Shown here: positions 4,040 to 47,701 of the stretch, one piece after another
Layout: every line of letters starts with the position of its first letter
Numbering within the stretch: position 1 is the first letter of the stretch
Source: an uncultured Thermoleophilaceae bacterium
GTDB lineage: Bacteria > Actinomycetota > Thermoleophilia > Solirubrobacterales > Thermoleophilaceae
Reading direction: 5' to 3'
Assembly (NCBI GenBank): GCA_963819115.1
Contig: CAWFUR010000012.1
Span: 163,706-227,705, forward strand
Length of the DNA stretch: 64,000 bases
Translations under genes and position numbers: made by a program
The notes under the pieces: generated by a model
Told to the model about the DNA's origin: nothing
Databases searched by the model: none
Seen by the model: the letters and a program-made list of their open reading frames with translations, nothing else

Positions 4040-6160
4040 GTGAGCACATCCCCGGACCGCCGCCGCCGCCAGGGCGGTATCGCGCTGGTGGTGATCACCG
4101 CGCTCCTGATCGCCGGCGCCGCGGTGACATGGTACGTGCACGAGGAGGTGGTGAACGGATCGAGGTTCAGCACCCGCGCGGCGTCCGCGCTCGACGACTC
4201 CGACGTCCGGACCGTGCTGGCGGTTCGCATGGTCGGCGGCCTCACCAGGAGCGTCGTTCCCGATGCACTGGTGGTGCGCCCGCTTCTGGTTCCGGCGCTG
4301 GCCACGCTCGCCGACACCTCGCCGTTCCGGCGGCTGTTCGCGCGAGCGGTACGCGATCGCCACCGGGCTCTGATCAATCACGAGACGACGTTCAGGTTCG
4401 AGCTTCCCCTGGGCGAGGGCGTCTTGTTCGAGTCGCTCGGGCGCGTTGCGCCCCGGATCGCGCGTCTGGTTCCGGCGGACCTGAGGGTGCCGATCGTGCG
4501 GCTCGACCCGCACGACTCCGAGCTGGCCGCCACCGGCTTCCTCGTGGACATCGCGGGCTGGCGCTGGCCGCTGACGCTCGCCGCGCTCCTCGCGGCGGCC
4601 GGTGCCGCCCTGTTGGCCGGAGGCATCCGGCCCGCGCTGGTCTACCTGGGAGCCGCCGCAACGGGCGGTGGCCTGATCGTCGCGGCCGCCGTCGCGGGGC
4701 TGGGTGAATTCGTGGTCTCGCACGCCGCGCACGCCGCCGATCTCAGCGACGACGTGGAGCGCGGAGCCATTCGGGCGCTGTGGACGGCGCTCTTCTCCGA
4801 CCTGATCACCTCGGCGCTGGTCGTGGCGCTCGGCGGAGCTGTGGTGGCCGCCCTGGCCTCGACCCAGCTCCCCAGAGGCCGGCTGGCCGCGGGGTGGGAG
4901 TGGACGCGCCGCGAGGCCGGCTCGCCCACCCGGCCGGCGCGGCTCGTGAGGGCCGCGGGCCTGATCGCCGCCGGGTCCGTGCTCATCTTCGATCCGGAGC
5001 TGCTGGCAAAGATCGTGCTCGTCGCCGCGGGCGTGCTCGTTGTGCTCGCGGGCGTGTGGCAGCTCCCGGGCCCGGGCCCACGCATGGAGGCCGCGCGGGC
5101 ACCGGCTCGCACCGCCTCGCCTCTGCTCCTGGCCGCCGCGATAACCGCGGCGATGGCGGTCACGACGCTCGTCGTGGTGCTCGTGCTGCCCACTCCGGGG
5201 GCCGCGACGGCGGAGAGCGCGGGGCCGGCCGAGGGGTGCAACGGCTCGCGGGCGCTCTGCGGCCGGCGCCTGGACCAGGTGGTGTTCCCGGGCACGCACA
5301 ACTCCTACGCGGCCGCCGACGAGCCGGGCTGGCTGTTTGCCAACCAGCGCCATGGGATCGGGCGCCAGCTGAAGGACGGCATCCGGGCGCTGACGCTCGA
5401 CATCCACTTCGGGGTGAGCGACCCGTCGACCGGCCGGGTTCGCACCGACCTCGGAACGGAGGAGTCTTCCCGCAACAAGGTCGCGCAGCAGCTGAGCCCC
5501 GGCGCCCTCCGTGTGGCGGACAGCCTCGCGGGCCGTGTCGGCAGTGGCCGGCTGACCGGCGAGCGCCGCGCCTATCTCTGTCACACGCTGTGTGAGCTCG
5601 GGGCGGAGCCGCTCGACGATCAGCTCAGGATCATCGGCTCGTTCCTGGCCGGCCATCCCGGCGCGGTGGTCATTGCGTTCATCGAGCCCTACGTTCCCGT
5701 GGGCACGATCGGGCGGGCGCTCGAGCGAACCGACCTGCTCACCCACGCCGCGCGCCTCCGGCTGGGGCAGCCGCTGCCCACGCTCGGTCAGCTCAGGCGA
5801 GCGGACACCCGCCTGGTGGTGCTGGCCGAGGAGGACGGCGGCACGCGCCCGTGGTACCTCCCCGGGTTCTCCTTCGTTCAGGACACGCCGCTGGGGGCGA
5901 AGACACCGGCCCAGCTCAGCTGCGCGCGCTACCGCGGGCGCCCCGACAGCCCCCTGCTCCTGGTCAACCACTGGATCCCGCCGTTCCCGCCGTCGGTGAC
6001 CCGCAACGAGCAGATCGGCGGGAGGTTCCTGGAGCGCCGGCTGAGGCAATGTCAACGCCGCCGGCGGCACCTGCCGAACCTGATCGCCGTGGACTTCTAT
6101 GAACGCAGCGGGGTGGTGGAGGCGGCCGGGCGGCTCAACGCCGCCCGCCGCGTGCGGTGA
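4040..6160 (+). CDS. multi-pass membrane protein with C-terminal PI-PLC X-domain-like phosphodiesterase
   Basis: I chose the GTG at 4040 to avoid overlap with the GH5 gene. Several hydrophobic helices are followed by VVFPGTHNSYAA...GIRALTLDIHF, a PLC-like catalytic block. Confidence 0.6.
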   Translation: MSTSPDRRRRQGGIALVVITALLIAGAAVTWYVHEEVVNGSRFSTRAASALDDSDVRTVLAVRMVGGLTRSVVPDALVVRPLLVPALATLADTSPFRRLFARAVRDRHRALINHETTFRFELPLGEGVLFESLGRVAPRIARLVPADLRVPIVRLDPHDSELAATGFLVDIAGWRWPLTLAALLAAAGAALLAGGIRPALVYLGAAATGGGLIVAAAVAGLGEFVVSHAAHAADLSDDVERGAIRALWTALFSDLITSALVVALGGAVVAALASTQLPRGRLAAGWEWTRREAGSPTRPARLVRAAGLIAAGSVLIFDPELLAKIVLVAAGVLVVLAGVWQLPGPGPRMEAARAPARTASPLLLAAAITAAMAVTTLVVVLVLPTPGAATAESAGPAEGCNGSRALCGRRLDQVVFPGTHNSYAAADEPGWLFANQRHGIGRQLKDGIRALTLDIHFGVSDPSTGRVRTDLGTEESSRNKVAQQLSPGALRVADSLAGRVGSGRLTGERRAYLCHTLCELGAEPLDDQLRIIGSFLAGHPGAVVIAFIEPYVPVGTIGRALERTDLLTHAARLRLGQPLPTLGQLRRADTRLVVLAEEDGGTRPWYLPGFSFVQDTPLGAKTPAQLSCARYRGRPDSPLLLVNHWIPPFPPSVTRNEQIGGRFLERRLRQCQRRRRHLPNLIAVDFYERSGVVEAAGRLNAARRVR

Positions 6161-6515
6161 ACCCCTTCGTCGAGACGCACTCGAACTGGAGAAGGCCCAC
6201 GTCCTCGGGCTGTCGTGGGGCGGGGTGGTGGCCCAGGGGCTCTAGTCGGACCTCCACCCGGGGGGGTACCGGGCCATGGCCCGGATGCTCGCCCACACGG
6301 ACACTCGCCCCCTCCTGCCGCGAATCAAGGTGCCCACCCTCCTCCTATGGGGCGACGACGACAGGCGATCTCCCCTGAGCGTGGGCGAGCACCTGCGCGA
6401 CGGCATCCCGGGAGCCACGCTCGTGGTGATCCCGGAGGCGGGGCACCTGAGCAACCTCGAGCAGCCCGCTCGCTTCAACGCCGCGGTGCGCGATTTCGCC
6501 GGGCGTCCTGGCTAG
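6159..6515 (+). pseudogene. alpha/beta-hydrolase relic (N-terminus and cap deleted, frames disrupted)
   Basis: One frame reads LELEKAHVLGLSWGGVVAQGL then TAG (GxSxG nucleophile elbow). Another frame (6276-6515) reads IKVPTLLLWGDDDRRSP...VIPEAGHLSNLEQP (catalytic His block). Only about 10 codons separate them. Confidence 0.7.
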
Positions 6516-22296: not shown

Positions 22297-22370
<74 letters not shown>

Positions 22371-37512: not shown

Positions 37513-37753
37513 TCACGCCGCCCCGGCACGCACCGAGGCGAGCGCGCGCCGTCCCGCGCTGTCGCAGACGATCCTCAGCGTCGCCGCGACCGCGACTGCC
37601 GTCGCCGCGCTCATCTGGTCGGCGCTGTTCTACGACGCCACCCGCAATCACGCAGTCGCGCTGCCCGCGACTCACGCCCAACCCGCGCATGCGGCGACCG
37701 GCGCAGCCAAGCCGGCGCCCACCGTCGCGCCCGTCACCACCCGCACATCATGA
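37505..37753 (+). CDS. small single-pass membrane protein
   Basis: Helix ILSVAATATAVAALIWSALFY. The stop overlaps the ApbE start (ATGA). Confidence 0.45.
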   Translation: MTDHAAPARTEASARRPALSQTILSVAATATAVAALIWSALFYDATRNHAVALPATHAQPAHAATGAAKPAPTVAPVTTRTS

Positions 37754-38718
37754 CGGCGCCTTTCACAGAGCACGAGCATCACTTCGACGTCTTCGGCACC
37801 CAGGTTCGACTGCTCGTCGGCGCTCCCGCCGGCGAGCCGTTCACCGCCCGGCTCGCCGCGCTACGTGTGCAGCGAACGATGCACGACCTGCATGCCAAGC
37901 TGACGCGCTTCGAGCCCGGCAGCGAGCTGTCTCGACTCAACGCACGCTCCGGCCAACCGATCGCAGTCTCATCGACGCTGTTGGACGCCGTCCAGGCGGC
38001 GATCTTCGCCGCCGAGGTCAGCGAGGGACTCGTCGATCCCACGATCACGCCGCATCTGGAGCGGGCCGGCTACGCGCGATCGCGCGCGGGGGAGCCGCCC
38101 GCGGACCTGCGGGCCGCGCTGGAAACCGCGCCGCCACGCCGGCCCGCCGCCCGAGCGCCCCGCAGTGGCTGGGAGCGCCTCGACGTCGACCCTGAAGACG
38201 GCACCGTCCAGTTGCCCTCCGGGACGCGTCTGGACCTCGGCGGAAGCGCCAAGGGCCTGGCGGTCGACATCGCGGCGCGGATGCTCGCCGGCCGGCCGAC
38301 GTTCGCGATCGACGCCGGCGGCGACATCCGCCTCGGCGGCACCTCTCGTGTGCCGCGGATGGTCAACATCGCTCACCCGCTCACCGACGCCGACGCGCAC
38401 CGCTTCACCCTGCATGACGGCGCCGTCGCAACCAGCGGCCTGCGCACCCGTATCTGGAAGACCGCCGCGGGCCACGCCCACCACCTCATCGACCCATCAA
38501 CGGGTGAGCCGGCATGGACCGGCGTCATCCAGGCCACCGCGTTGGCACCCACCGCCCTGGAGGCTGAGACGCTCGCCAAGGGCGCACTGCTGCGCGGCCC
38601 GCGCGCCGGACGCCGCGTGCTCGAACGCCACGGCGGCGGCGCGCTGATCCTCGACGACGGCGAACTGCTCCTCGTCGGCGCGCTCGCGACCACACCGCGC
38701 GGGCTGGTGGCGGCATGA
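37750..38718 (+). CDS. apbE: FAD:protein FMN transferase (ApbE family)
   Basis: FGTQVRL..., LDLGGSAKGLAVD and TSGLRTR blocks are typical of ApbE. Translationally coupled to both neighbours. Confidence 0.8.
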   Translation: MTAPFTEHEHHFDVFGTQVRLLVGAPAGEPFTARLAALRVQRTMHDLHAKLTRFEPGSELSRLNARSGQPIAVSSTLLDAVQAAIFAAEVSEGLVDPTITPHLERAGYARSRAGEPPADLRAALETAPPRRPAARAPRSGWERLDVDPEDGTVQLPSGTRLDLGGSAKGLAVDIAARMLAGRPTFAIDAGGDIRLGGTSRVPRMVNIAHPLTDADAHRFTLHDGAVATSGLRTRIWKTAAGHAHHLIDPSTGEPAWTGVIQATALAPTALEAETLAKGALLRGPRAGRRVLERHGGGALILDDGELLLVGALATTPRGLVAA

Positions 38719-39326
38719 CCACCGACCCGACCCAGCAGGTGTTCTGGCTCGCCAGCCGCGCCGTGGGCATCGTTGCGATCGCGCTGCTGGGGATCTCCGT
38801 CGCCCTCGGGCTGGCGATGTCCACCAAGCTGCTGCGCCGCCCCGGCCTGCCCGCCAAGCTCAAGCGCTTCCACGAAGCCTCGACCCTCGTCACGCTCGCC
38901 CTGATCGTCGTGCACGCCGGGCTGCTGCTCGCCGACGGCTACCTGCGACCGGGGCTCGCCGGCGTGATGCTGCCCTTCCACCTCTCCTACCGGCCGCTGT
39001 GGACAGGCACCGGGATCATCGCCGCCTGGCTGGCCGCGATCCTCGGGCTGAGCTTCTACGCGCGCAAGTGGATCGGCGCGAAGACCTGGCGCTGGCTGCA
39101 CCGCTGGACACTGGCCGTTTACGTTCTCGCGGTCGGTCACGCCATCGGCGCCGGAACTGACGGCCGCTCGACCTGGATGCTGGCGATGCTCACGCTGCTC
39201 ACCGCGCCGATCGTCTTCGCCTTCAGCTACCGCATGCTCCCGACCGCGCCACGCCAGCGCCCGCCGCGAGCGGCACGTCAACCCGTCCGCCGCCATGCCG
39301 CGGCGAGCGCTGCGCCAGGCTCGTGA
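38715..39326 (+). CDS. ferric-reductase-like transmembrane domain protein (no FAD/NAD domain)
   Basis: Six hydrophobic helices with His residues in helices (FHEAS, VVHAGLL, WLHRW, VGHAIG). Resembles the FRD/MsrQ heme-b membrane module. Confidence 0.6.
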   Translation: MTTDPTQQVFWLASRAVGIVAIALLGISVALGLAMSTKLLRRPGLPAKLKRFHEASTLVTLALIVVHAGLLLADGYLRPGLAGVMLPFHLSYRPLWTGTGIIAAWLAAILGLSFYARKWIGAKTWRWLHRWTLAVYVLAVGHAIGAGTDGRSTWMLAMLTLLTAPIVFAFSYRMLPTAPRQRPPRAARQPVRRHAAASAAPGS

Positions 39327-39413
39327 ACCGCCCAACGATCGAGGGACTTCCACGGACTCCCACCGCGGCCGGGCACGGATGGCGAAACGACAGCCGCGCG
39401 TGATGCTTGACCG

Positions 39414-41315
39414 GTGACGTCCCCGGCGACATCGCATCAGCATGCGCGCATCCGCGCGTCGCTGCACACGCTCGCCGAGTCCCGCGCGCAGATCCTCGCT
39501 GTGATCGCCGTCGTCGCGATCGCCGCCGGATTCTTGCTGCACGCGATCGGCGCAGGAGACGCCGGGCACCAGGTGTGGCGGGCCGCGGTGGCGCTGCTTG
39601 CCGCAGAGCTCGCGTTCGAGGTCGGTCGCACCGTTGTCGTCGATCATCACCTCGGCGTCGACACGATCGCGCTCGTCGCGATGGTTGGAGCGCTGGCGCT
39701 CGGCGAGGAACTCGCGGGCGCGGTCATCGGCCTGATGTTCACCGGTGGAGCGGCGCTTGAGGCGGCGGCATCCCGCCGCGCGCGCCGCGAGCTGACGCTT
39801 CTGGTCCAGCGCGCGCCGCGCGTCGCCCAACTGCGGATCGACCGCGGGCTCGAGGAGGTGCCGGTCGACCGTGTCCGCGCCGGGGACACGGTGCTCGTGC
39901 GCACGGGAGAGGTCGTGCCCGTCGACGGCATCGTGGTCGGGGACGAGGCCGTCGTGGACACCAGCACGCTCAGCGGCGAGCCGCTACCGGTCACGCTGCG
40001 TGCCGGGATGGCCGTGATGAGCGGCAGCGTCAACGCGGGCGGCCCGTTCGACGTGCGTGCCGACCGGCCCGCGGCCGAGAGCGCTTACGCCGCGCTGGTG
40101 CGGCTCGTAGAGCAGGCCCAGGCCCAGCGCGCCCCGTTCGTGCGGATGGCCGACCGCTACGCCGGCATTTTCCTGCCCATCACGCTCGTGGTCGCCGGCC
40201 TGGCGTGGGCGCTCAGCGGTGACCCCGTGCGGGCGCTGGCGGTGGTGGTCGTCGCGACGCCGTGCCCGCTCATCCTCGCTGCACCGATCGCGCTCGTCTC
40301 TGGCCTGTCACGCGCCGCGCGCAACGGCGTCATCGTCAAGGGCGCCGGCGCGATCGAGACCCTCGGCGAGGCCCGTACCGTCCTCTTCGACAAGACGGGC
40401 ACATTGACGGTCGGCACCCCGGAAGTCCGCGAGATCGTCTCGCTGAACGGCCTGGCCAGAGGCGAAGTCCTGCGGCTCGCCGCGTCCGTCGACCGCCTCT
40501 CCGCCCACGTGCTCGGCGAGGCGCTCGTCCGCGCGGCCCAGGAATCCGCGCTCGACCTGACGATGCCGAGCGACGTCGACGAGGAGCCCGGCCAGGGGAT
40601 CGCCGGCACGGTCGACGGCCGTCGCATCGCGGTCGGCAGCCGCGCCTTCCTGCGCGCCCAGGGGTACGACCCCGACGCCGTCGCCGCCGCCTCGCTTGCG
40701 ACCGGTCGCGGCTCCGGCGAGGCCCACGTGCTCGTCGGCGTCGAAGGCGAGCCTGCAGGCGTGATCGTGATGGCCGACGAGCTGCGCCCCGACGCCGACA
40801 GCATCGTCGACCGCCTGCGCCGGGAGGGTGTGCGCCACGTCGCGATGGTCTCCGGCGACCGGGCCTCGGTGGCACAGCGGATCGGCGACATGCTCGGCGT
40901 GGATCGCGTCTACGCCGAGCAGTCGCCCGAGGACAAGCTCGAGGTCGTCCGCACGCTGCGCAACGACCCGGCGCTCAGCCCCGTGATCATGGTCGGCGAC
41001 GGCGTCAATGACGCACCCGCGCTGGCGATCGCCGACCTCGGCATCGCGATGGGTGCCGCAGGCGCCACGGTCTCGTCCGAGACCGCCGACGCCGTCATCA
41101 CCGTCGACCGCGTCGATCGCGTCGCCGACGCCGTCCACACCGGGCGCCGAGCGCTGTTCATCGCCCGCCAGAGCGTTCTCGCCGGCATGGGGCTGAGCAT
41201 CGCGGCGATGGGCGTCGCGGCCGCCGGCTACCTCCAGCCGGTTGCCGGCGCGCTCTTCCAGGAGGTCGTCGATGTCGCCGTCATCCTCAACGCGCTGCGG
41301 GCATTGCGCGGATAG
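39414..41315 (+). CDS. heavy-metal-translocating P1B-type ATPase (no N-terminal HMA domain)
   Basis: CPC motif (ATPCPLILAAP), phosphorylation site DKTGTLT and hinge GDGVNDAPAL. Confidence 0.9.
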   Translation: MTSPATSHQHARIRASLHTLAESRAQILAVIAVVAIAAGFLLHAIGAGDAGHQVWRAAVALLAAELAFEVGRTVVVDHHLGVDTIALVAMVGALALGEELAGAVIGLMFTGGAALEAAASRRARRELTLLVQRAPRVAQLRIDRGLEEVPVDRVRAGDTVLVRTGEVVPVDGIVVGDEAVVDTSTLSGEPLPVTLRAGMAVMSGSVNAGGPFDVRADRPAAESAYAALVRLVEQAQAQRAPFVRMADRYAGIFLPITLVVAGLAWALSGDPVRALAVVVVATPCPLILAAPIALVSGLSRAARNGVIVKGAGAIETLGEARTVLFDKTGTLTVGTPEVREIVSLNGLARGEVLRLAASVDRLSAHVLGEALVRAAQESALDLTMPSDVDEEPGQGIAGTVDGRRIAVGSRAFLRAQGYDPDAVAAASLATGRGSGEAHVLVGVEGEPAGVIVMADELRPDADSIVDRLRREGVRHVAMVSGDRASVAQRIGDMLGVDRVYAEQSPEDKLEVVRTLRNDPALSPVIMVGDGVNDAPALAIADLGIAMGAAGATVSSETADAVITVDRVDRVADAVHTGRRALFIARQSVLAGMGLSIAAMGVAAAGYLQPVAGALFQEVVDVAVILNALRALRG

Positions 41316-41316
41316 C

Positions 41317-41481
41317 TCATTCCACGACGCGCAGTGCGCCGGAGCGGTCGGTGCGGCGCAGACGGCGCAGCGTCAGCAGCGGCGCGACGGCAACCATCAG
41401 CGTCCCGGTGACGAGCGCAAGCAGGTAGGTGAGCGGCGCCACCGAGGTGAGCGTCCGGGTCTCGGGCATGTTGGTGTCGAT
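41317..41481 (-). pseudogene. FtsX-like ABC permease C-terminal relic
   Basis: The last TM helix plus LTLRRLRRTDRSGALRVVE-stop resembles the conserved FtsX/MacB C-terminal tail. Nothing upstream is recognisable. Confidence 0.35.
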
Positions 41482-41751
41482 GAGCCACGACAGCAGCGCA
41501 CGGCCGGCCGCGGGGACGACGCGTGCGAGCCGGGTATCGGCACCAGAACGCCAAGCTGAGGGCCCGGGTACCCATGGGGAGGGGACGGCCGTGACCCACG
41601 TCAGATGTGCAGGCGCCGGGTTCCGGCCCGGCAATTTGAGCTCTCATGAGCTGGGTGAGGACGGCAGGATCGCGCACGGCTACCTCTTCACCTGCCCCGC
41701 TGGGGTCATCGAGGTCCTAGCCCGGGCGGGCGACCGGCTGGAGGCGCCCAC

Positions 41752-42913
41752 ATGACCAAGGCGTCCGGCGTTCCGGAGCCCCGCCGCGCCGTTGACGCCG
41801 GCGCGGGTGCAATGGCCTGGCGGTTCGGCGATGCGCTGCGGGTCGGCGACGGCGCCGCCGCCGAGCGCGTCGTGGCGGCGCTGGAAGCCGTCCAGTCTCT
41901 AGTCATCGCGCCGGCAATGGTCAGAATCGGCGAGCTCTGGCAGTCGCGGCTCATCGGCGTGGCCGACGAGCACCTGGCGACATCGATCAGCCAACGGTCG
42001 TTGATCCGCGTGTTCGAGACGATCAGCGCGAACCGGGACCGCGGGCGCTCCCGTGAGCGGGTGCTGCTCGCTGCGGTCGAGGGCCAGCATCATGTGCTCG
42101 GGCTGCGCATGGTGGCCGACGTCCTCGAGGGCGCCGGGTTCGACGTCCTCTACACCGGCGAGGACGTCCCAGTGGAGAGCCTGCGCGACGCCGTCGCCAA
42201 GCATCGCCCCGCGGTCGTGGGACTCGCGTTCGGGATCGCCTCGGACGTGAGCTGTCTGGCCGACTCGCTGTGGGCCATCCACGAGGTCGCTCCCGAGACG
42301 CGCGTCATGCTCGGTGGTCGCGCCGTACCGCCCGGGCTCCGGACCGGCGGATACGCCTGGGTCGCGACGACCATGGAGGTCGTCGCCGCGGTCGAGGATC
42401 TGCTCGCGGGGCCGGGCCAGCCGCTGCCTGAGTTTGTCGACCTGATGCGCTCCCCCGCAGGCGACGATCATGGGCCGCGCGAGCATTCGGTCGAGCCCGA
42501 TGGCGTCGCGGCGCAGCTGGCCAGGGCGGCTGACGAAGCGACGGGTCTCGCCCGCAAGCACGTTCGCCGTGCCGCGACGTACCGGGATCTGGCCTTTCGC
42601 GACCCGCTGACAGGCCTGCCCATGTTCGGCCCGGCGACACCGTGGCCCGCTTCGGCGGCGACGAGTTGCCGTCCTGCTGCCCCACGGCACGCCGGCGATC
42701 GCCGGCGAGATCGGCGACCGCATCCGCTCTGCCGTGGCTGCCACCGTGGACCCGGCCGTAAGCGTGAGCGTCGGGGTGGCTGAGCTTGAGCACGACGCAC
42801 GCCTCGGGGTGCTTGCGGCCGACACGGCGCTGTACGAGGCGAAGGCGGGCGGCCGTGACCGCGTCGAGATGGCGCGCCCCCGGAAGGCTCCCGACAGCCG
42901 GGGACCGGGCTGA
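41752..42913 (+). pseudogene. CarH-type B12-binding domain / GGDEF protein, decayed (internal deletion plus frameshifts)
   Basis: The N-terminus is intact, with ELWQSRLIGVADEH (W-x9-EH) and GQHHVLG. DPLTGL is then joined directly to RPGDTVARFGGDE in another frame. A 1-nt loss follows (gag tt-gcc) before AVLLPHGT...LYEAKAGGRDRV, which ends at TGA 42911-42913. Confidence 0.8.
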
Positions 42914-42916
42914 CCG

Positions 42917-43225
42917 ATGTACGTCTCGATGTCACGATTGGCGATCCCGGGTGAGCGCGCCCCCGAGCTGGTCGCGGCATTTCGCGCTCGTTCGCGGCTG
43001 GCCGATGCGGCCGACGGGTTCATCGACCTCCAGGTCTGGCAGTCCGATCGTGACCCCGGGGAGATCCTGATGGTCAGTCGCTGGACCGACCGCGAGTCCT
43101 TCAAGGCCTACATGAAGAGCGATGCGCACAAGGCCTCGCACGATCGCATCGATCCGGAGCTCAAGGCCGACATCAAGCTCCTGCGGCTCGATCATCTCCA
43201 CACCTACGAGGTGGTTGTCGAATGA
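42917..43225 (+). CDS. ABM-fold monooxygenase, IsdG/MhuD-like (putative heme-degrading)
   Basis: 102 aa. RWTDRESFKAYMKSDAHKASHDRI parallels the IsdG segment [23 protein letters not shown]. Confidence 0.7.
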   Translation: MYVSMSRLAIPGERAPELVAAFRARSRLADAADGFIDLQVWQSDRDPGEILMVSRWTDRESFKAYMKSDAHKASHDRIDPELKADIKLLRLDHLHTYEVVVE

Positions 43226-43635
43226 CCGTTCGTCGCCCCAGCGGAGCTCCGCCGCCCGCCGTCGTAAGGATCGCTGGCGCCGAAACGCCGCTCGGGCCGG
43301 TCGCCGTCGTGATCTGCGACCGCTACCGCGAGGAGTTCCCGGACGAGGCCGAGCGCTACGGCGATGCTGGGATCGACTGGTGTCGCCATGACAACCAATG
43401 GCTGCTCTCCTGGGCCGTGGACGACGTTCTCGAGGCCGCCGACCTCTGTGAGCAGGCCCGCTGGCTGGCGGAGGTGCTGGAAGCCCGGGGCTTCCCCGTC
43501 GATCGATTGGCCCGTGATCTCGAGATCGCGGCGGACGTGGTGGACGAGGGATGTTTCGGCGAGGCGAGCCCGGCGGTTGCGTCGCGTCTCTCGACCGCCG
43601 CCGAGACCGTCGCAGGGCTCAAGAGCGGTTTCTAA
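43222..43635 (+). CDS. small helical protein of unknown family (paralogue of 45925-46374)
   Basis: ATGA overlap with the upstream gene. Shares the motifs ICxRYRxEFPDE..RYG.AG..WCxHDNQ and RGFPVxRLARxLxIAA with the second copy. Confidence 0.65.
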   Translation: MTVRRPSGAPPPAVVRIAGAETPLGPVAVVICDRYREEFPDEAERYGDAGIDWCRHDNQWLLSWAVDDVLEAADLCEQARWLAEVLEARGFPVDRLARDLEIAADVVDEGCFGEASPAVASRLSTAAETVAGLKSGF

Positions 43636-43812
43636 CCGCGGTGCTCGCGGCGGTCATGACGGTCACGGCGCGGTCGCGGCGCTTGTCCCAATGATGGTCG
43701 TGATCGCGGTTCGGCTCGCACGCTCGCCGAAGCCTCCCCACTGCCCTTCCTACGGTTCGGCTCGTCCCTCGGAACATCGCTTCTAGAGCTGAAACTGGGC
43801 GTTCAGGCGGCC

Positions 43813-43856
43813 GTCTACGGAACCGAAGGTCACAGGTTCGAATCCTGTCGGGCGCG
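43813..43856 (+). repeat. 44-bp direct repeat, distal copy (tRNA-Arg 3' fragment, attR-like)
   Basis: gtctacggaaccgaaggtcacaggttcgaatcctgtcgggcgcg is identical to 22327-22370. No convincing tRNA 5' half lies upstream. Confidence 0.9.
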
Positions 43857-43974
43857 TCACGAACTGCCTGGATATCGCGTGGTTCTGTGCGCACAGCGCG
43901 GTTTGAGACGGTCGGGACCATCAGTAGCTCGGTCAGTAATCGCGTCGAATGCGAACACCGAGGCGAGGGCGGCC

Positions 43975-44165
43975 TAGGTCGAGGGCCCCCTCATCACCCC
44001 GCTCGTGGTACCCCACGATGTAGCCCACTTGTGCGCATGTCGGCGTGCCCGAGGATCGTCTGGAGCGTGGATAGCGCTTCGCCACGGGACCACCGGATGT
44101 GGCGAACGTGGAGCGGGTGTCGTGCATCTGTAGACGGGGAGCGAAAAGCCTTTTCCCCGCATGGG
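43975..44165 (-). pseudogene. tyrosine recombinase (integrase) C-terminal relic, multiply frameshifted
   Basis: The minus strand reads GEKAFRSRLQMHDTRSTFATS (HxLRHTFAT-like box). A shifted frame reads LSTLQTILGHADMRT (LGH box), followed by GYIVGYHE (candidate catalytic Tyr region). Confidence 0.5.
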
Positions 44166-44277
44166 TACAGGTAGTTTTCCTACTTTGCGCCGAGGGTCAG
44201 GTGGCGTACGGTAGACAGCGGCTCGATGGCACCCGTTGAGGACAACCCCACGACCATGAGCCAGCCCGTTTTGCGAG

Positions 44278-45615
44278 ATGCCGACTGGTCGCACTAGGGC
44301 TATGCCTGACGGGCCGGGCCCGAAGCGCCGCCGAGCGGCGGACACCAGTGAGCGCGCCCTGCTGCGCTCGTTCGGCGACGCGCTGCGCGCCGGCGATCCG
44401 TCCGGGGCCAAGGGGGTCGCCGCGGACGCGCTCGAGGCCGGCTACGGCGTGACCACCGTGCAGGACCGCCTGATCGCCCCGGCGATGCGCTGGATCGGCG
44501 AACTGTGGCAGCACGGAGCGGTGACCGTGGGCGACGAGCATCTGGCCACGGCGATCAGCCAGGACGTGCTGGCGCGGCTGTTCCCGCGAGGGCTGACGGC
44601 GCCCGCTGGGTCGCGGGAGCGGATCGTCCTGGCGGCGGTCCAGGGGGAGCATCACACCCTCGGGCTGCGGATGGCCGCAGATGTCCTGGAGGGCGCGGGC
44701 TTCGACGTTCTCTATCTCGGCGCCGACGTGCCGCTCAGCGCCCTGCTCGACACCTGTAGGACGCACACGCCCTCCGCTCTGGGCCTGACTGTGAGTATGG
44801 CGCTCAACGTCCCGACGCTGATCTGGGAGATCGGAGAGGTCTGTGCGCTCGAGCAGCCGCCGGTGATTTTCGCCGCCGGCCGTGCGCTGGAGCCCGCGAT
44901 GAAGCAGGGCCTCGATATCCCGTTCGTCGCCGGCGTCGGGGATGTCGTCAGGACGGTGGAAGCCCTCTTGGCCCGGCCGCCCCGAGGCCCCGTCGTTCCG
45001 GCGGCGCTCGCCGCGAGGGTTCCTGCGGTGTACGGGCCGGAGGCGATCGGCACGGAGGCGCTGGGAACGCACGAGGACGCGTTCTCGCGAACGGCGCTGT
45101 CAGCAGCCGGGTCGGCGCGCGATGCCGCACGCCATGCCTTCGCGATGGAGCAGCTCGCCTTCCGAGACGCCCTCACGGGCCTGTGGAACCGCCGGGCCTA
45201 CGACGACCGATTTGACGAGGCGTCCGCTGCCGAGGCGCAATCCATGGTGCTCATGGTCGACGTCGACAAGTTCAAGCGCATCAACGACACCTTCGGCCAC
45301 GAAGCCGGTGACAAGGCGCTCATCGGGGTCGGCAACGCGATGCTGCGCAGCGTGCGCCCCGGCGACTTCGTCGCCCGGTACGGGGGCGATGAGTTCGCGA
45401 TCCTGCTGCCCGGGGCCGATGAGGCCGGGGCGGTGAGCGTCGGCGAGCGGATCCTCTATGCGGTCCGGCACACCCTCGCCGACCCGGCAGTCACCGTGAG
45501 CGTGGGCGTCTCGCCGGCGCTCGAATCCCAGCTGCAGACGTCGCTCGCCGTCGACAAGGCTCTCTACGACGCCAAGGAGGAGGGCCGCGACCGCGTCGTC
45601 GTCGCGGCCCGCTGA
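44278..45615 (+). CDS. CarH-type cobalamin-binding sensor domain fused to GGDEF diguanylate cyclase
   Basis: ELWQHGAVTVGDEH (W-x9-E-H cap motif), GEHHTLGLRM (E-x-H-x-x-G lower-ligand motif), and GGDEF domain RYGGDEFAILL with RxxD (RPGD) five residues upstream. An alternative ATG is at 44302. Confidence 0.8.
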   Translation: MPTGRTRAMPDGPGPKRRRAADTSERALLRSFGDALRAGDPSGAKGVAADALEAGYGVTTVQDRLIAPAMRWIGELWQHGAVTVGDEHLATAISQDVLARLFPRGLTAPAGSRERIVLAAVQGEHHTLGLRMAADVLEGAGFDVLYLGADVPLSALLDTCRTHTPSALGLTVSMALNVPTLIWEIGEVCALEQPPVIFAAGRALEPAMKQGLDIPFVAGVGDVVRTVEALLARPPRGPVVPAALAARVPAVYGPEAIGTEALGTHEDAFSRTALSAAGSARDAARHAFAMEQLAFRDALTGLWNRRAYDDRFDEASAAEAQSMVLMVDVDKFKRINDTFGHEAGDKALIGVGNAMLRSVRPGDFVARYGGDEFAILLPGADEAGAVSVGERILYAVRHTLADPAVTVSVGVSPALESQLQTSLAVDKALYDAKEEGRDRVVVAAR

Positions 45616-45619
45616 CCGC

Positions 45620-45928
45620 ATGTACATCTCCATGTCGCATCTGCGCATCTGTCCCGAGCGTGCCCCGGAGCTGATCGATGCATTCAGAGACCGGTGCGGT
45701 CTCGTCGAGGGCCACGTCGGTTTCATCGACCTGCAGGTCTGGCAGTCCGACCGCGACGCCGGCGAGGTCGTCATGGTGAGCCGCTGGAGCGACCGCGCGG
45801 CTTTCAAGGCCTACATGAAGAGTGCGGACCACCGGATGTCCCATGAGCGCATCGATGCGGGGCTGCGCTCGGAGATCAAGCTGGAGGCCCTGCAGCACAT
45901 GCACACGTTCGAGGTGGTCGCAGAATGA
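45620..45928 (+). CDS. ABM-fold monooxygenase, IsdG/MhuD-like (putative heme-degrading)
   Basis: 102 aa with RWSDRAAFKAYMKSADHRMSHERI. Lies 4 nt after the upstream stop. Confidence 0.7.
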   Translation: MYISMSHLRICPERAPELIDAFRDRCGLVEGHVGFIDLQVWQSDRDAGEVVMVSRWSDRAAFKAYMKSADHRMSHERIDAGLRSEIKLEALQHMHTFEVVAE

Positions 45929-46374
45929 GCCGCCCGATGCCTCCCAGCGGAGCCAACCCGCCCGTGCGGGCGCAGACCGCCGCGGGCGTCCCGATCGAGC
46001 TCTTGCCGCTTGCCCAGGACATCTGTCGCCGCTACCGGGCCGAGTTCCCCGACGAGGAGGACCGCTACGGGCCCGCGGGCCAGGCCTGGTGCGTCCACGA
46101 CAACCAGTACCTGCTGGCCTGGGCGATCCAGGATGCCCGCGACGGCACCGTCGAACTCGGCGAGCAGGCTGCCTGGCTCGCCGATATCCTCGACTCCCGC
46201 GGCTTCCCCGTCGCCCGGCTGGCTCGCAATCTCAAGATCGCCGCCGCCGTCGTCGTCGAGGGCATCGGCGAGCGGTCGTTCGCCGATGATGTCGCAAGCC
46301 GTCTCGTGGCCGTGGCCGCCGCCGTCGACCTCTGGCAGCGGGTGCCGGAGCATGACGCCCCGCCGCCAGCTTGA
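45925..46374 (+). CDS. small helical protein of unknown family with conserved Cys/His motifs
   Basis: ATGA overlap with the upstream gene. ICRRYRAEFPDEEDRYGPAGQAWCVHDNQYLLAWA and WLADILDSRGFPVARLARNLKIAA are conserved with 43222-43635. Confidence 0.7.
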   Translation: MSRPMPPSGANPPVRAQTAAGVPIELLPLAQDICRRYRAEFPDEEDRYGPAGQAWCVHDNQYLLAWAIQDARDGTVELGEQAAWLADILDSRGFPVARLARNLKIAAAVVVEGIGERSFADDVASRLVAVAAAVDLWQRVPEHDAPPPA

Positions 46375-46405
46375 GGCTGATGGGCCTGGGAGCCCACGTT
46401 CCCGC

Positions 46406-47701
46406 TCAGCGCCAGTCGAAATGCTCGCGGTGAATGCGCCTTGCCGGAACACCCGCGAGCCGCAGTTGTGTCTGGAAGGCTCGCAGCATCCCCTGGGGTC
46501 CGCACATGAACACCGACAGCCCGCTCGCGTCGCCCCCGGCGGTGGCGAGGACCTGCGCGGTCGTGAGGCGTCCCTGGTCGCTGGTATCGACCAGATGGGC
46601 CTGCAGCGATTCATGGCGGTCGGCGATCGCACAAATCTCGTCGGCGAAGGGCGCCTCCCCTTCCGCGGAGTAGAAGAAGTCCACCCGGTGGGGCAGATGA
46701 CCGTCGAGGGCGCGCAGCCAGCTGAGAAATGGCGCTACGCCGACGCCACCTGCGATCCACACCTGCCGGTCGGTGCCGCGCAAATGGTTGAAGCGCCCGT
46801 GGGGACCGCCGATGACCGCCGGCATGCCCGGTTCGATCAGGTCCTTCAGGCGGGAGGTGTAATCGCCAAGCGCTTTGACCGTCACGCGCAGGACGCCCTC
46901 GTGCGGCGCGCTCGAGATGGTGAACGGGTGCCGATGCCAGCCGTCCTTCGCCTCGAGATAGACCATCGCGAACTGGCCCGGGATGAAGTCGATTCCGCGG
47001 CCTAATGGCCGCATCGCGACCTCGACGAGACCTGCTTCGATCTCCCGGACGGCATCCACCTGATAGTCGTGTAGCGAGGCGAAGAAGCGCGCCAGCAGCT
47101 CTCGGTAGACGTAGAAGCCCAGACCGACTCCACCGACTCCGACCAAGGCCCAGCGCAGGATCGGCGCCTCGCGGAAAGGGGTGCCGTCGAGCACCCCGTG
47201 CGCGAAGCCTGCGGCGACGAACAGGCCGGTGGTGCGATGTAGCGCCCGCCAACGGTCATAGCCGCCGAAGACACGGCGGGCTCCGCGTATACCGGGCGCG
47301 TCGCGAACCGCAAGCACCACACCCCGCAAGGCTGCCGGCACGACCGATTGCCATCGCGGCAGGATCGCCCACAGGGCGAGCGCCACCAAACCGATCGCCC
47401 CGATCGCACCGAGGGGTCCGCCGAATCCGGTGCCATGAGAGCTTGCGGACAGCAGCACGTGCGGCGCTAGCAGGATCAGGCCTGTGATCGCAAGCCGGCG
47501 ATGCCAGATCGCCGCCCGGTCGATCCCGTCGAACCACTCCTCCACCCAGGGCAGGGTGCTGATGAGCACGAGCGCGATCGACAGCAGCAGGATCGACTCG
47601 CCGCCAAGCAGCTGGCCGAGGTAGCTGCCCACGGGTTGATCAACAGGCCGCGCCAACGCCCAGAGGACGGCCTGGGCGATGACGAGGGCGCCAATCGTCA
47701 T
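46406..47701 (-). CDS. ferric reductase/NOX-like flavocytochrome (heme-b TM domain + FAD + NAD(P)H domains)
   Basis: TM domain with His-bearing helices, HPFTISS (FAD motif), WIAGGVGVAPFLS (NAD motif) and a C-terminal MCGPQGM block. Confidence 0.8.
   Translation of the reverse strand: MTIGALVIAQAVLWALARPVDQPVGSYLGQLLGGESILLLSIALVLISTLPWVEEWFDGIDRAAIWHRRLAITGLILLAPHVLLSASSHGTGFGGPLGAIGAIGLVALALWAILPRWQSVVPAALRGVVLAVRDAPGIRGARRVFGGYDRWRALHRTTGLFVAAGFAHGVLDGTPFREAPILRWALVGVGGVGLGFYVYRELLARFFASLHDYQVDAVREIEAGLVEVAMRPLGRGIDFIPGQFAMVYLEAKDGWHRHPFTISSAPHEGVLRVTVKALGDYTSRLKDLIEPGMPAVIGGPHGRFNHLRGTDRQVWIAGGVGVAPFLSWLRALDGHLPHRVDFFYSAEGEAPFADEICAIADRHESLQAHLVDTSDQGRLTTAQVLATAGGDASGLSVFMCGPQGMLRAFQTQLRLAGVPARRIHREHFDWR

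Follow-up and report, generated by a model that had tools for sequence, protein, structure and literature searches.

The window analysed here is a 64,000-nucleotide stretch (64 kb) from an uncultured Thermoleophilaceae bacterium, with ~70% G+C and an Actinomycetota-like composition. It contains a cassette of three genes that encode a CarH-type B12 sensor fused to a GGDEF cyclase (gene 1), a protein of the ABM fold (gene 2), and a stand-alone photoglobin (gene 3). Photoglobins are the bilin-binding half of the photocobilin photoreceptors. The photocobilin class is marked by a photoglobin that contacts both B12 sub-domains and holds the bilin beside the corrin, with adenosylcobalamin and biliverdin bound at once and optically coupled. 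The cassette is probably a split photocobilin-type photoreceptor with a cyclic di-GMP (c-di-GMP) output.

The three genes are tightly packed (Table 1). The gene 1/gene 2 junction reads TGA-CCGC-ATG, a gap of 4 nt, and genes 2 and 3 overlap in the sequence ATGA. An earlier note, made from the letters of this DNA alone, had described the same arrangement of same-strand genes, and it is confirmed by the open reading frames (ORFs) and by direct reading of the junctions. A public annotation of gene 1 starts eight codons later, at 44302.

Table 1. Positions, within the window, of the cassette, its protein domains, and the paralogous cassette upstream
Feature	Positions	Strand	Description
Gene 1	44278-45615	+	445 aa; CarH-type B12 sensor-GGDEF
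B12-binding_2 four-helix bundle of gene 1	44365-44580	+	aa 30-101; Pfam PF02607; carries W77-x9-E87-H88
B12-binding Rossmann domain of gene 1	44620-44967	+	Pfam PF02310, envelope aa 115-180; fold to ~230
GGDEF diguanylate cyclase domain of gene 1	45157-45594	+	aa 294-439; full-length PF00990 match
Gene 2	45620-45928	+	102 aa; ABM-fold protein
Gene 3	45925-46374	+	149 aa; stand-alone photoglobin
Intercassette spacer	43636-44277	none	642 nt; slightly lower G+C (composition)
Paralogous sensor gene	41752-42913	+	45% identical to gene 1; open ORF ends at 42783; ancestral stop 42911-42913
Paralogous ABM gene	42917-43225	+	102 aa; 64% identical to gene 2; same Ser/Tyr/His signature
Paralogous photoglobin gene	43222-43635	+	137 aa; 57% identical to gene 3; WCRHD motif kept

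Products of the three genes

Gene 1 is composed of a cobalamin-binding sensor module (residues ~25-235), a linker of ~55 residues, and a GGDEF domain. The Pfam matches are B12-binding_2 (1.9e-11), B12-binding (1.1e-11), and GGDEF (2.9e-35). The sensor module has the W77-x9-E87H88 cap (ELWQHGAVTVGDEH) and the lower-ligand loop E124-x-H126-x-x-G129 (GEHHTLG). The signature of light-responsive cobalamin photoreceptors derived with SignatureFinder consists of GxxW, EH, GxxH, and GxxxP (PMC11796333). Gene 1 possesses all four elements, as G74ELW77, E87H88, G123EHH126, and G148ADVP152. The CarH model of NCBIfam matches gene 1 at 6.7e-18, which is under its equivalog cutoff, as expected for a protein that does not belong to the MerR type. 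In the PDB, the sensor half comes closest to the photocobilins 8J2W/8J2X (E 4.5e-18) and 8J2Y, the last aligning to residues 33-252, with CarH behind.

The cyclase residues D328-V-D330, N336, D345, GGDEF369-373, and K433xxGR are all present, and the I-site RPGD360-363 lies five residues upstream of GGDEF369-373. The domain was aligned to 5EUH and scores 131 bits with TIGR00254, against a cutoff of 37. The cyclase is apparently active, with both A-site and I-site intact. The earlier note had reported the two CarH motifs and an apparently active GGDEF with this I-site, and had predicted that profile searches would find B12-binding_2, B12-binding, and GGDEF in gene 1 and ABM in gene 2; the motifs lie at the places it gave, and the profiles agree. 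Only ~55 residues separate the B12 domain from GGDEF and there is therefore no room for a photoglobin domain. Gene 1 is thus not a photocobilin in one polypeptide, as it has no globin domain and the photoglobin is encoded separately by gene 3. The B12-GGDEF architecture is found in more than 100 protein clusters, and the sensor module occurs elsewhere as PAS-B12, LysR-HTH-PAS-B12 (HTH, helix-turn-helix), and B12-EAL.

Gene 3 has no family match in Pfam or NCBIfam. Searches of the PDB with phmmer and hmmsearch returned only Yos9_DD, LIM domains, and a transacetylase at E > 0.2, which were taken as chance. The earlier note could name no family for this protein; that stands for Pfam and NCBIfam, but fold, fusions, a fusion model, and profile comparison identify gene 3 as a photoglobin. 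The family is compact, with ~360 close homologues; an exhaustive hidden Markov model (HMM) search gave only 311 representatives at 50% clustering. Nearly all members stand alone and are 130-160 aa long.

The AlphaFold2 model of gene 3 (predicted local distance difference test, pLDDT, 92) is composed of a short β-hairpin and five helices. With Foldseek against the PDB, ranks 1-38 are all phycobiliproteins (probability 1.00, query-normalised template modelling (TM) score 0.53-0.63), and haemoglobins come next. The photoglobin family was originally defined by such a globin fold, akin to phycobiliproteins but distinct from them (PMC8717448). Its published pocket contains an Asp on the third core helix (D49), a hydrophobic residue ~31 positions on (L80), and an optional Cys three residues before the Asp (C46) (PMC8717448). 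The gene 3 residues C56-x-x-D59...L89 match this pocket. In a survey of 80 loci, each from a different GTDB species, W55, C56, D59, W84, L89, and R92 are invariant (80/80). Within the motif W55-C56-x-H58-D59, position 58 is His at 68 loci and Tyr at 12, and it is Arg in the fusion protein P0199. C34 is missing at 15 loci.

Members of the gene 3 family are also found fused to B12 modules. P0199 has the order B12_2-B12-gene 3, and P0131 and P0222 have the order gene 3-B12_2-B12; both orders have been reported for photocobilins. A model of P0199 (pLDDT 83) was built from an alignment, A4, with seven B12 rows plus rows of the gene 3 family. Its best PDB matches are the photocobilins 8J2W, 8J2X, and 8J2Y (E 1e-15 to 9e-11). 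These alignments have 390-394 columns and span the whole of the 327-337-residue targets, with a target-normalised TM of 0.67-0.71, and CarH-type structures with B12 domains only align over just 200-230 columns. When P0199 was searched against the PDB with phmmer, the B12 half alone aligned.

For the profile comparison, the sequence of the photocobilin SasPcob was rebuilt from printed alignments, and 18 relatives with a canonical photoglobin domain were added. The offset from chain index to published numbering is +6, checked on His108, Trp61, Glu71-His72, and Trp296. Alignment of the gene 3 family to these 19 domains with hhalign gave a moderate match (E 2.1e-5, probability 77%, 79 columns). 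D59 falls on Asp270 of SasPcob, W84 on Trp296, and C56 on Thr267. Asp270 binds the A-C pyrrole nitrogens of biliverdin and Trp296 packs on the D ring (PMC10979010). Alignment of the gene 3 family to allophycocyanin was not significant (probability 1.6%), and its placing of C56 and D59 in register with the attachment residues Cys81 and Asp84 is a register hint only. Gene 3 is predicted to bind a bilin and to partner the sensor module of gene 1.

All gene 3 homologues have a conserved N-terminal PPSGAxPP motif followed by a β-hairpin before the globin helices (45925-46000; residues 1-25 of gene 3). The motif is kept in the B12 fusions, in the linker of P0199 and at the N-terminus of P0131, and may be a docking peptide. 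We know of no counterpart in characterised photocobilins. P0201, a protein of 1527 aa, has 18 tandem repeats that each match positions 5-52 of the gene 3 family profile weakly, covering the PPSGA motif, the hairpin, and the first helix. They may reflect biased composition or be genuine repeats derived from the family.

Gene 2 matches the Pfam ABM family over its full length (PF03992, 1.4e-15) and has a ferredoxin-like fold of ~100 aa, in line with the ABM-fold protein of 102 aa described before. With the HmuQ/IsdG models of NCBIfam, it scores 22-34 bits against cutoffs of 115-156: HmuQ 34 bits (cutoff 130), PRK13314 30.5 (115), and IsdG 23 (156). The best PDB match is 1IUJ (TT1380, uncharacterised). 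IsdG, HmoB, and MhuD are weak matches.

Conservation of the gene 2 active site was read from an alignment of 71 orthologues, each encoded directly upstream of a gene 3 homologue. The position of the IsdG catalytic Asn (N7) is Ser6 in 70/71, that of the catalytic Trp (W67) is Tyr65 in 70/71, and that of the heme-ligating His (H77) is His75 in all 71. Asn and Trp occupy these positions in the IsdG and MhuD rows of the alignment. Tool-derived alignments place Ser6 opposite Asn in 1IUJ, and Tyr65 opposite Trp in 1IUJ and 8AVH. W41, H71, S74, and R77 are further invariants specific to this family; W56 is the structural Trp that ABM proteins share. The active site is not degenerate but a different, strictly conserved one.

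The earlier note had seen that the N-terminal catalytic Asn looks like Ser, which the orthologues bear out. It had also taken both the Trp and the His of the triad to be alignable; the His is, but the Trp claim was wrong, because Tyr65 aligns at the triad Trp and W56 is the structural Trp. The note had likened the C-terminal half to IsdG and MhuD; gene 2 is not IsdG-like at the active site, and its NCBIfam scores are far under cutoff. On these grounds gene 2 was rejected as a bona fide heme oxygenase of the IsdG family. Since two catalytic residues are replaced and the scores lie under the curated cutoffs, heme cleavage by gene 2 is an inference and not a family assignment. From its genomic partner, a tetrapyrrole-directed role is the most economical reading.

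Linkage in other species and the surroundings of the cassette

The 80 loci come mostly from Solirubrobacterales, Thermoleophilaceae, and Gaiellales. Nocardioides, Nakamurella, Jatrophihabitans, Propionibacteriales, and Acidimicrobiales are also included, with one Acidobacteriota and one Gemmatimonadales metagenome-assembled genome (MAG). An ABM gene lies directly upstream of the gene 3 homologue at 69 of the 80 loci, and at 59 of these 69 the two genes share a 4-nt stop/start overlap. A CarH-type B12 gene is adjacent at 42/80 (37 upstream and 5 downstream). The exact triad, with B12 plus GGDEF upstream, is found at 17 loci and on 2 partial contigs, and the gene-neighbourhood check proposed earlier thus finds it in other species and in unrelated contexts. 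At locus L007, an identical triad lies in a wholly different gene neighbourhood. Where the upstream B12 gene has no GGDEF, the single locus inspected (L003) encodes HTH-PAS-B12. Further fusions join ABM to a gene 3 homologue (P0214) and B12 to ABM (P0378).

At ~20 of the 80 loci, the ABM-gene 3 pair has no B12 gene within 6 kb, including by a search with the family profile, which means that the pair can function with no B12 sensor beside it. The neighbours at these loci show no recurrent theme and vary (Amt, major facilitator superfamily (MFS) transporter, F420H2-dependent reductase, RsbW-like kinase). With ABM upstream at 69/80 and B12 adjacent at 42/80, ABM and photoglobin form the conserved core, which often has B12 sensors of varied output as its clients.

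Individual loci depart from the triad in several ways. One MAG (MFD01213.bin.2.94; loci L047 and L049) has ABM-photoglobin pairs at two or more loci on different contigs, of which one includes B12-GGDEF and another does not, so a sensor gene at another place in the genome may serve B12-less pairs in trans. The cultured isolate Nocardioides zhouii HLT2-9 (NZ_SDWV01000001.1; L022, 6001-6384) encodes a gene 3 homologue with 52% identity, a B12-domain gene ~860 nt downstream, and no ABM gene, and is a natural ABM-less variant as well as a possible handle for experiments. Locus L005 (5699-7376) is an operon of ABM, photoglobin, and a luciferase-like monooxygenase with no adjacent B12 sensor; an adenosylcobalamin (AdoCbl)-dependent methylmalonyl-CoA mutase/MeaB pair lies 2-5 kb upstream. 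At L001/L012 (~5890-6435), a lone gene 3 homologue stands beside a divergent HTH_20/MarR-AHSA1-MFS operon. A short ABM-like remnant ~110 nt upstream of this homologue suggests loss of ABM.

The window itself holds a second cassette upstream of gene 1 (41752-43635), in which the genes follow the same order and the ATGA overlap is also present. This paralogous cassette is the older of the two. Its B12 module is intact by Pfam, keeping Wx9EH and a QHHVLG loop, and its ABM and photoglobin genes are also intact. Its GGDEF domain has decayed: the stretch that corresponds to gene 1 residues 303-358 has been lost, including metal- and guanine-binding residues, and there are two frameshifts, with tblastn pieces in three frames. 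P0378, a 400-aa protein from a JGI metagenome, is 65% identical to the paralogous sensor and 82% to the paralogous ABM protein. Its GGDEF domain is wholly absent, and the B12 module reads through into ABM. An assembly artefact was considered for the decayed cyclase and rejected, given the 56-residue deletion and an orthologue without the cyclase. As the cyclase is wholly gone in P0378, its loss in the paralogue lineage is biological. The two cases suggest that this loss is recurrent and that the ABM-photoglobin core is retained. The decayed paralogue and P0378 are natural controls, in which output domains are swapped or lost and the core is kept.

The promoter of genes 1-3 presumably lies in the spacer that separates the cassettes. 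A promoter and terminator scan of 41300-46900 found no sigma-70-like or terminator-like sites above shuffles. An Rfam scan of the 64 kb found no cobalamin or c-di-GMP riboswitch; the sole match is a tRNA gene at 22297-22370. The upstream flank (37750-41315) encodes an ApbE flavin transferase, a ferric-reductase-like transmembrane protein, and a P-type ATPase. Convergent to gene 3, at its 3' side, lies a membrane FAD_binding_8/NAD_binding_1 reductase (46406-47701). The pairing of a reductase with a putative oxygenase is suggestive, but other triad loci do not share these flanks. The window neighbours (P-type ATPase, ferric-reductase-like proteins, cupin, glyoxalase, short-chain dehydrogenase/reductase, and beta-lactamase) were considered as parts of the system and excluded because they are not syntenic with the triad at other loci.

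Proposed mechanism and alternatives

The earlier note had proposed a tetrapyrrole- or light-to-c-di-GMP system related to the photocobilins and split into an operon. The core of this proposal holds: gene 1 is a CarH-type B12-GGDEF protein and gene 3 supplies the missing photoglobin. The IsdG-type identity of gene 2 is lost. The analysis establishes the domain identities and motifs, the fold and photoglobin homology of gene 3, the conserved ligand residues, the synteny, and the natural fusions. For the mechanism below, the identities of the cofactors, the docking, the direction of light regulation, and the activity of the ABM protein are inferred.

Gene 1 would bind AdoCbl in its CarH-type module, with His126 as the lower ligand and W77 and E87-H88 capping the adenosyl group. 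Bound AdoCbl would hold the cyclase in a dark state of low activity, as in AbDPcob, a photocobilin with a cyclase of its own. Green light would cleave the Co-C bond, rearrange the sensor module, and activate the cyclase, and the RPGD I-site would give product feedback. In AbDPcob, AdoCbl binding lowers cyclase activity and green light raises kcat more than 10-fold (PMC10979010).

The 149-aa photoglobin of gene 3 is predicted to dock non-covalently on the gene 1 B12 module. D59 and W84 would hold a linear tetrapyrrole on it, with a possible thioether bond to the invariant C56. The chromophore may tune, extend, or gate the light response, e.g., to red light. Biliverdin in the photoglobin of AbDPcob makes AdoCbl photolysis responsive to red light, and isolated photocobilin modules regulate an isolated cyclase in trans via protein-protein contacts (PMC10979010). 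Gene 2, translationally coupled and in stoichiometric amounts, would be the dedicated tetrapyrrole-handling partner of gene 3. Most likely it would make the chromophore by oxidative heme cleavage with non-canonical chemistry, or load or modify it.

Several observations weigh against this reading. The kinship of gene 3 to photoglobins is remote in sequence, with HMMER against the PDB blank and an hhalign probability below 95%. How the domains of the P0199 model are placed relative to each other is uncertain (predicted TM score 0.55; root-mean-square deviation 5-7 Å against 8J2W). Gene 2 is without two of the three IsdG catalytic residues. The cyclase of gene 1 follows the cobalamin-binding domain (CBD), and the order in AbDPcob is diguanylate cyclase (DGC), CBD, and bilin-binding domain (BBD); the direction of regulation may therefore not transfer. 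Finally, given the ~20 loci with a B12-less pair, B12 photobiology may not be the primary role of the ABM-gene 3 pair.

A bolder form of the proposal goes further and is, on balance, unlikely. It holds that the ABM protein could be a new Ser/Tyr/His enzyme that cleaves or modifies tetrapyrroles, and that the bilin it produces on the spot, perhaps one other than biliverdin, is attached to Cys56 of the photoglobin by a thioether bond. The pair would then be a self-sufficient, covalent, phycobiliprotein-like biliprotein, serving as a detachable second-colour antenna for B12 photoreceptors in non-photosynthetic soil Actinomycetota, with a bilin route independent of canonical heme oxygenase.

Of the alternatives, the best placed, although quite improbable, is that the ABM-photoglobin pair is primarily an autonomous dark unit that senses or processes heme, oxygen, or bilin and only sometimes reports to B12 sensors. 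It might act in heme detoxification or in iron/heme status signalling and have been recruited beside B12-GGDEF, HTH-PAS-B12, and others; in this cassette, the cyclase would be modulated by tetrapyrrole or redox status, with no second colour channel. The tighter linkage of gene 3 to ABM than to B12 genes, the varied neighbours of the ~20 B12-less loci, and the one genome with a lone gene 3 homologue next to a MarR/HTH_20 regulator all agree with such a unit. The B12 partners of these loci could, however, be encoded elsewhere, as L047 and L049 show multiple copies in one MAG. Gene 3 domains are also fused directly to B12 photosensor modules in both orders, and the bilin contacts used for optical coupling in SasPcob, Asp270 and Trp296, are invariant in the gene 3 family.

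It is very unlikely that gene 1 acts alone as a green-light, CarH-like diguanylate cyclase, with genes 2 and 3 co-transcribed and functionally separate, e.g., as a small-molecule monooxygenase and a helical accessory protein unrelated to light. In favour, gene 1 has every component that AdoCbl photochemistry and c-di-GMP synthesis require, the ABM fold serves diverse kinds of catalysis, the IsdG triad is not complete in gene 2, and gene 3 has no Pfam family. Against this stand the homology of gene 3 to photoglobins by fold, profile, and fusion partners, the recurrence of the triad in different genomic contexts, and the finding of B12-gene 3, ABM-gene 3, and B12-ABM fusions alike. The least probable alternative is that gene 3 binds heme or a corrinoid via C34, C56, and H58 instead of a bilin, sensing gases or redox state or serving gene 1 as a cobalamin chaperone, with the ABM protein acting on a different substrate: the globin fold, the haemoglobins that follow the phycobiliproteins in the fold search, the invariant C56, and H58 at 68/80 loci would fit, but the proximal-His position is the invariant L89, as in photoglobins, H58 and C34 are not fixed (Tyr in 12/80 and Arg in P0199; absent in 15/80), and the invariant residues are the bilin contacts of SasPcob and phycobiliproteins.

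To our knowledge, photocobilins are the only photoreceptors that couple B12 and bilin photochemistry, and only two fused proteins have been studied. The cassette and ~70 orthologous loci indicate that the B12-bilin system also exists as separable parts. They provide a testable hypothesis for the supply or attachment of the chromophore in B12-bilin photoreceptors and do not overturn current understanding. They also bear on what bilin-binding globins, from which the phycobiliproteins descend, did in heterotrophs. If true, a c-di-GMP switch for green and red light whose three parts can be separated genetically would be a useful optogenetic scaffold.

Comparison with known systems

The cassette is most likely an uncharacterised variant of the photocobilin photoreceptors and not a wholly new system. 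The earlier note was not aware of any characterisation of the arrangement. Its kind had already been catalogued in 2021 (PMC8717448) and a DGC-photocobilin was characterised in 2024 (PMC10979010), so the novelty was overstated. What is new here is the identification of gene 3 and the three-part split architecture. In this clade, the near-obligate, translationally coupled partner is ABM and not the B12 protein. The fixed Ser/Tyr/His site of the ABM protein is also new, as is the combination of both SasPcob bilin ligands with an invariant Cys of phycobiliprotein type.

Schneider et al. (2021) described, computationally, stand-alone photoglobins beside B12-binding_2/B12-binding genes, with GGDEF among the outputs (PMC8717448). 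In their set of 5,975 photoglobins, the stand-alone members are almost always next to B12 genes, and one sentence mentions an ABM monooxygenase and luciferase-like oxygenases in the neighbourhoods (PMC8717448). In the literature library searched, no paper beyond this mention ties an ABM/IsdG-like enzyme to B12-bilin systems. Some members of the 2021 set have the Cys-x-x-Asp ... Leu pocket, as in gene 3. The difference lies in the near-obligate partner, which is ABM here (69/80), and a B12 gene is adjacent at only 42/80.

In AbDPcob of Acidimicrobiaceae (PDB 8J2Y; Zhang et al. 2024), as in the cassette, a CarH-type AdoCbl module is combined with a photoglobin and a GGDEF cyclase, and c-di-GMP synthesis is under light control there (PMC10979010). 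AbDPcob is a single chain, ordered DGC-CBD-BBD. In the cassette, the CBD comes before the cyclase, the photoglobin has a gene of its own, and the ABM gene is placed between the sensor and photoglobin genes. In AbDPcob, His replaces the biliverdin-binding Asp and biliverdin is bound poorly (PMC10979010), whereas in gene 3 the Asp is retained and an additional invariant Cys is present.

SasPcob of Saccharothrix syringae (8J2W/8J2X) is the best structural match of the fusion P0199, at full length (E 1e-15), and its biliverdin ligands Asp270 and Trp296 align with D59 and W84 of gene 3. It differs in being fused, in having no enzyme output, and in possessing Thr where gene 3 has Cys; the characterised photocobilins are without Cys at this position (PMC10979010). 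Similarity between its globin half and gene 3 is detectable only profile-to-profile.

CarH of Thermus thermophilus and Myxococcus xanthus has the same kind of sensor module, an AdoCbl photosensor made up of a four-helix bundle and a Rossmann domain with Wx9EH and E/DxHxxG. Its output is a MerR DNA-binding domain, whereas gene 1 has a GGDEF cyclase and a photoglobin partner. IsdG, MhuD, and HmuQ share with gene 2 the ABM ferredoxin-like fold of ~100 aa, the conserved His (H75), an F-x-x-[WY]-x-x-S...H segment, and weak matches to the HmuQ/IsdG models. Gene 2 differs by Ser for Asn, by Tyr for Trp, by scores under the cutoffs, and by having no association with heme-uptake genes.

The BBAG-2 globins of Myxococcales, described by Rockwell et al. 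(2023), bind biliverdin and are genomically linked to a B12-binding protein and a heme oxygenase (PMC10151467). Both systems thus have a separate bilin-binding globin and a B12-binding protein, joined by a heme-cleaving enzyme there and by the ABM protein here. The bilin source of BBAG-2 is a canonical heme oxygenase (PF01126), with or without a ferredoxin-dependent bilin reductase. BBAG-2 globins are without a Cys of the CXRD type, whereas the C-x-H/R-D of gene 3 resembles BBAG-1, BBAG-3, and the phycobiliproteins (PMC10151467).

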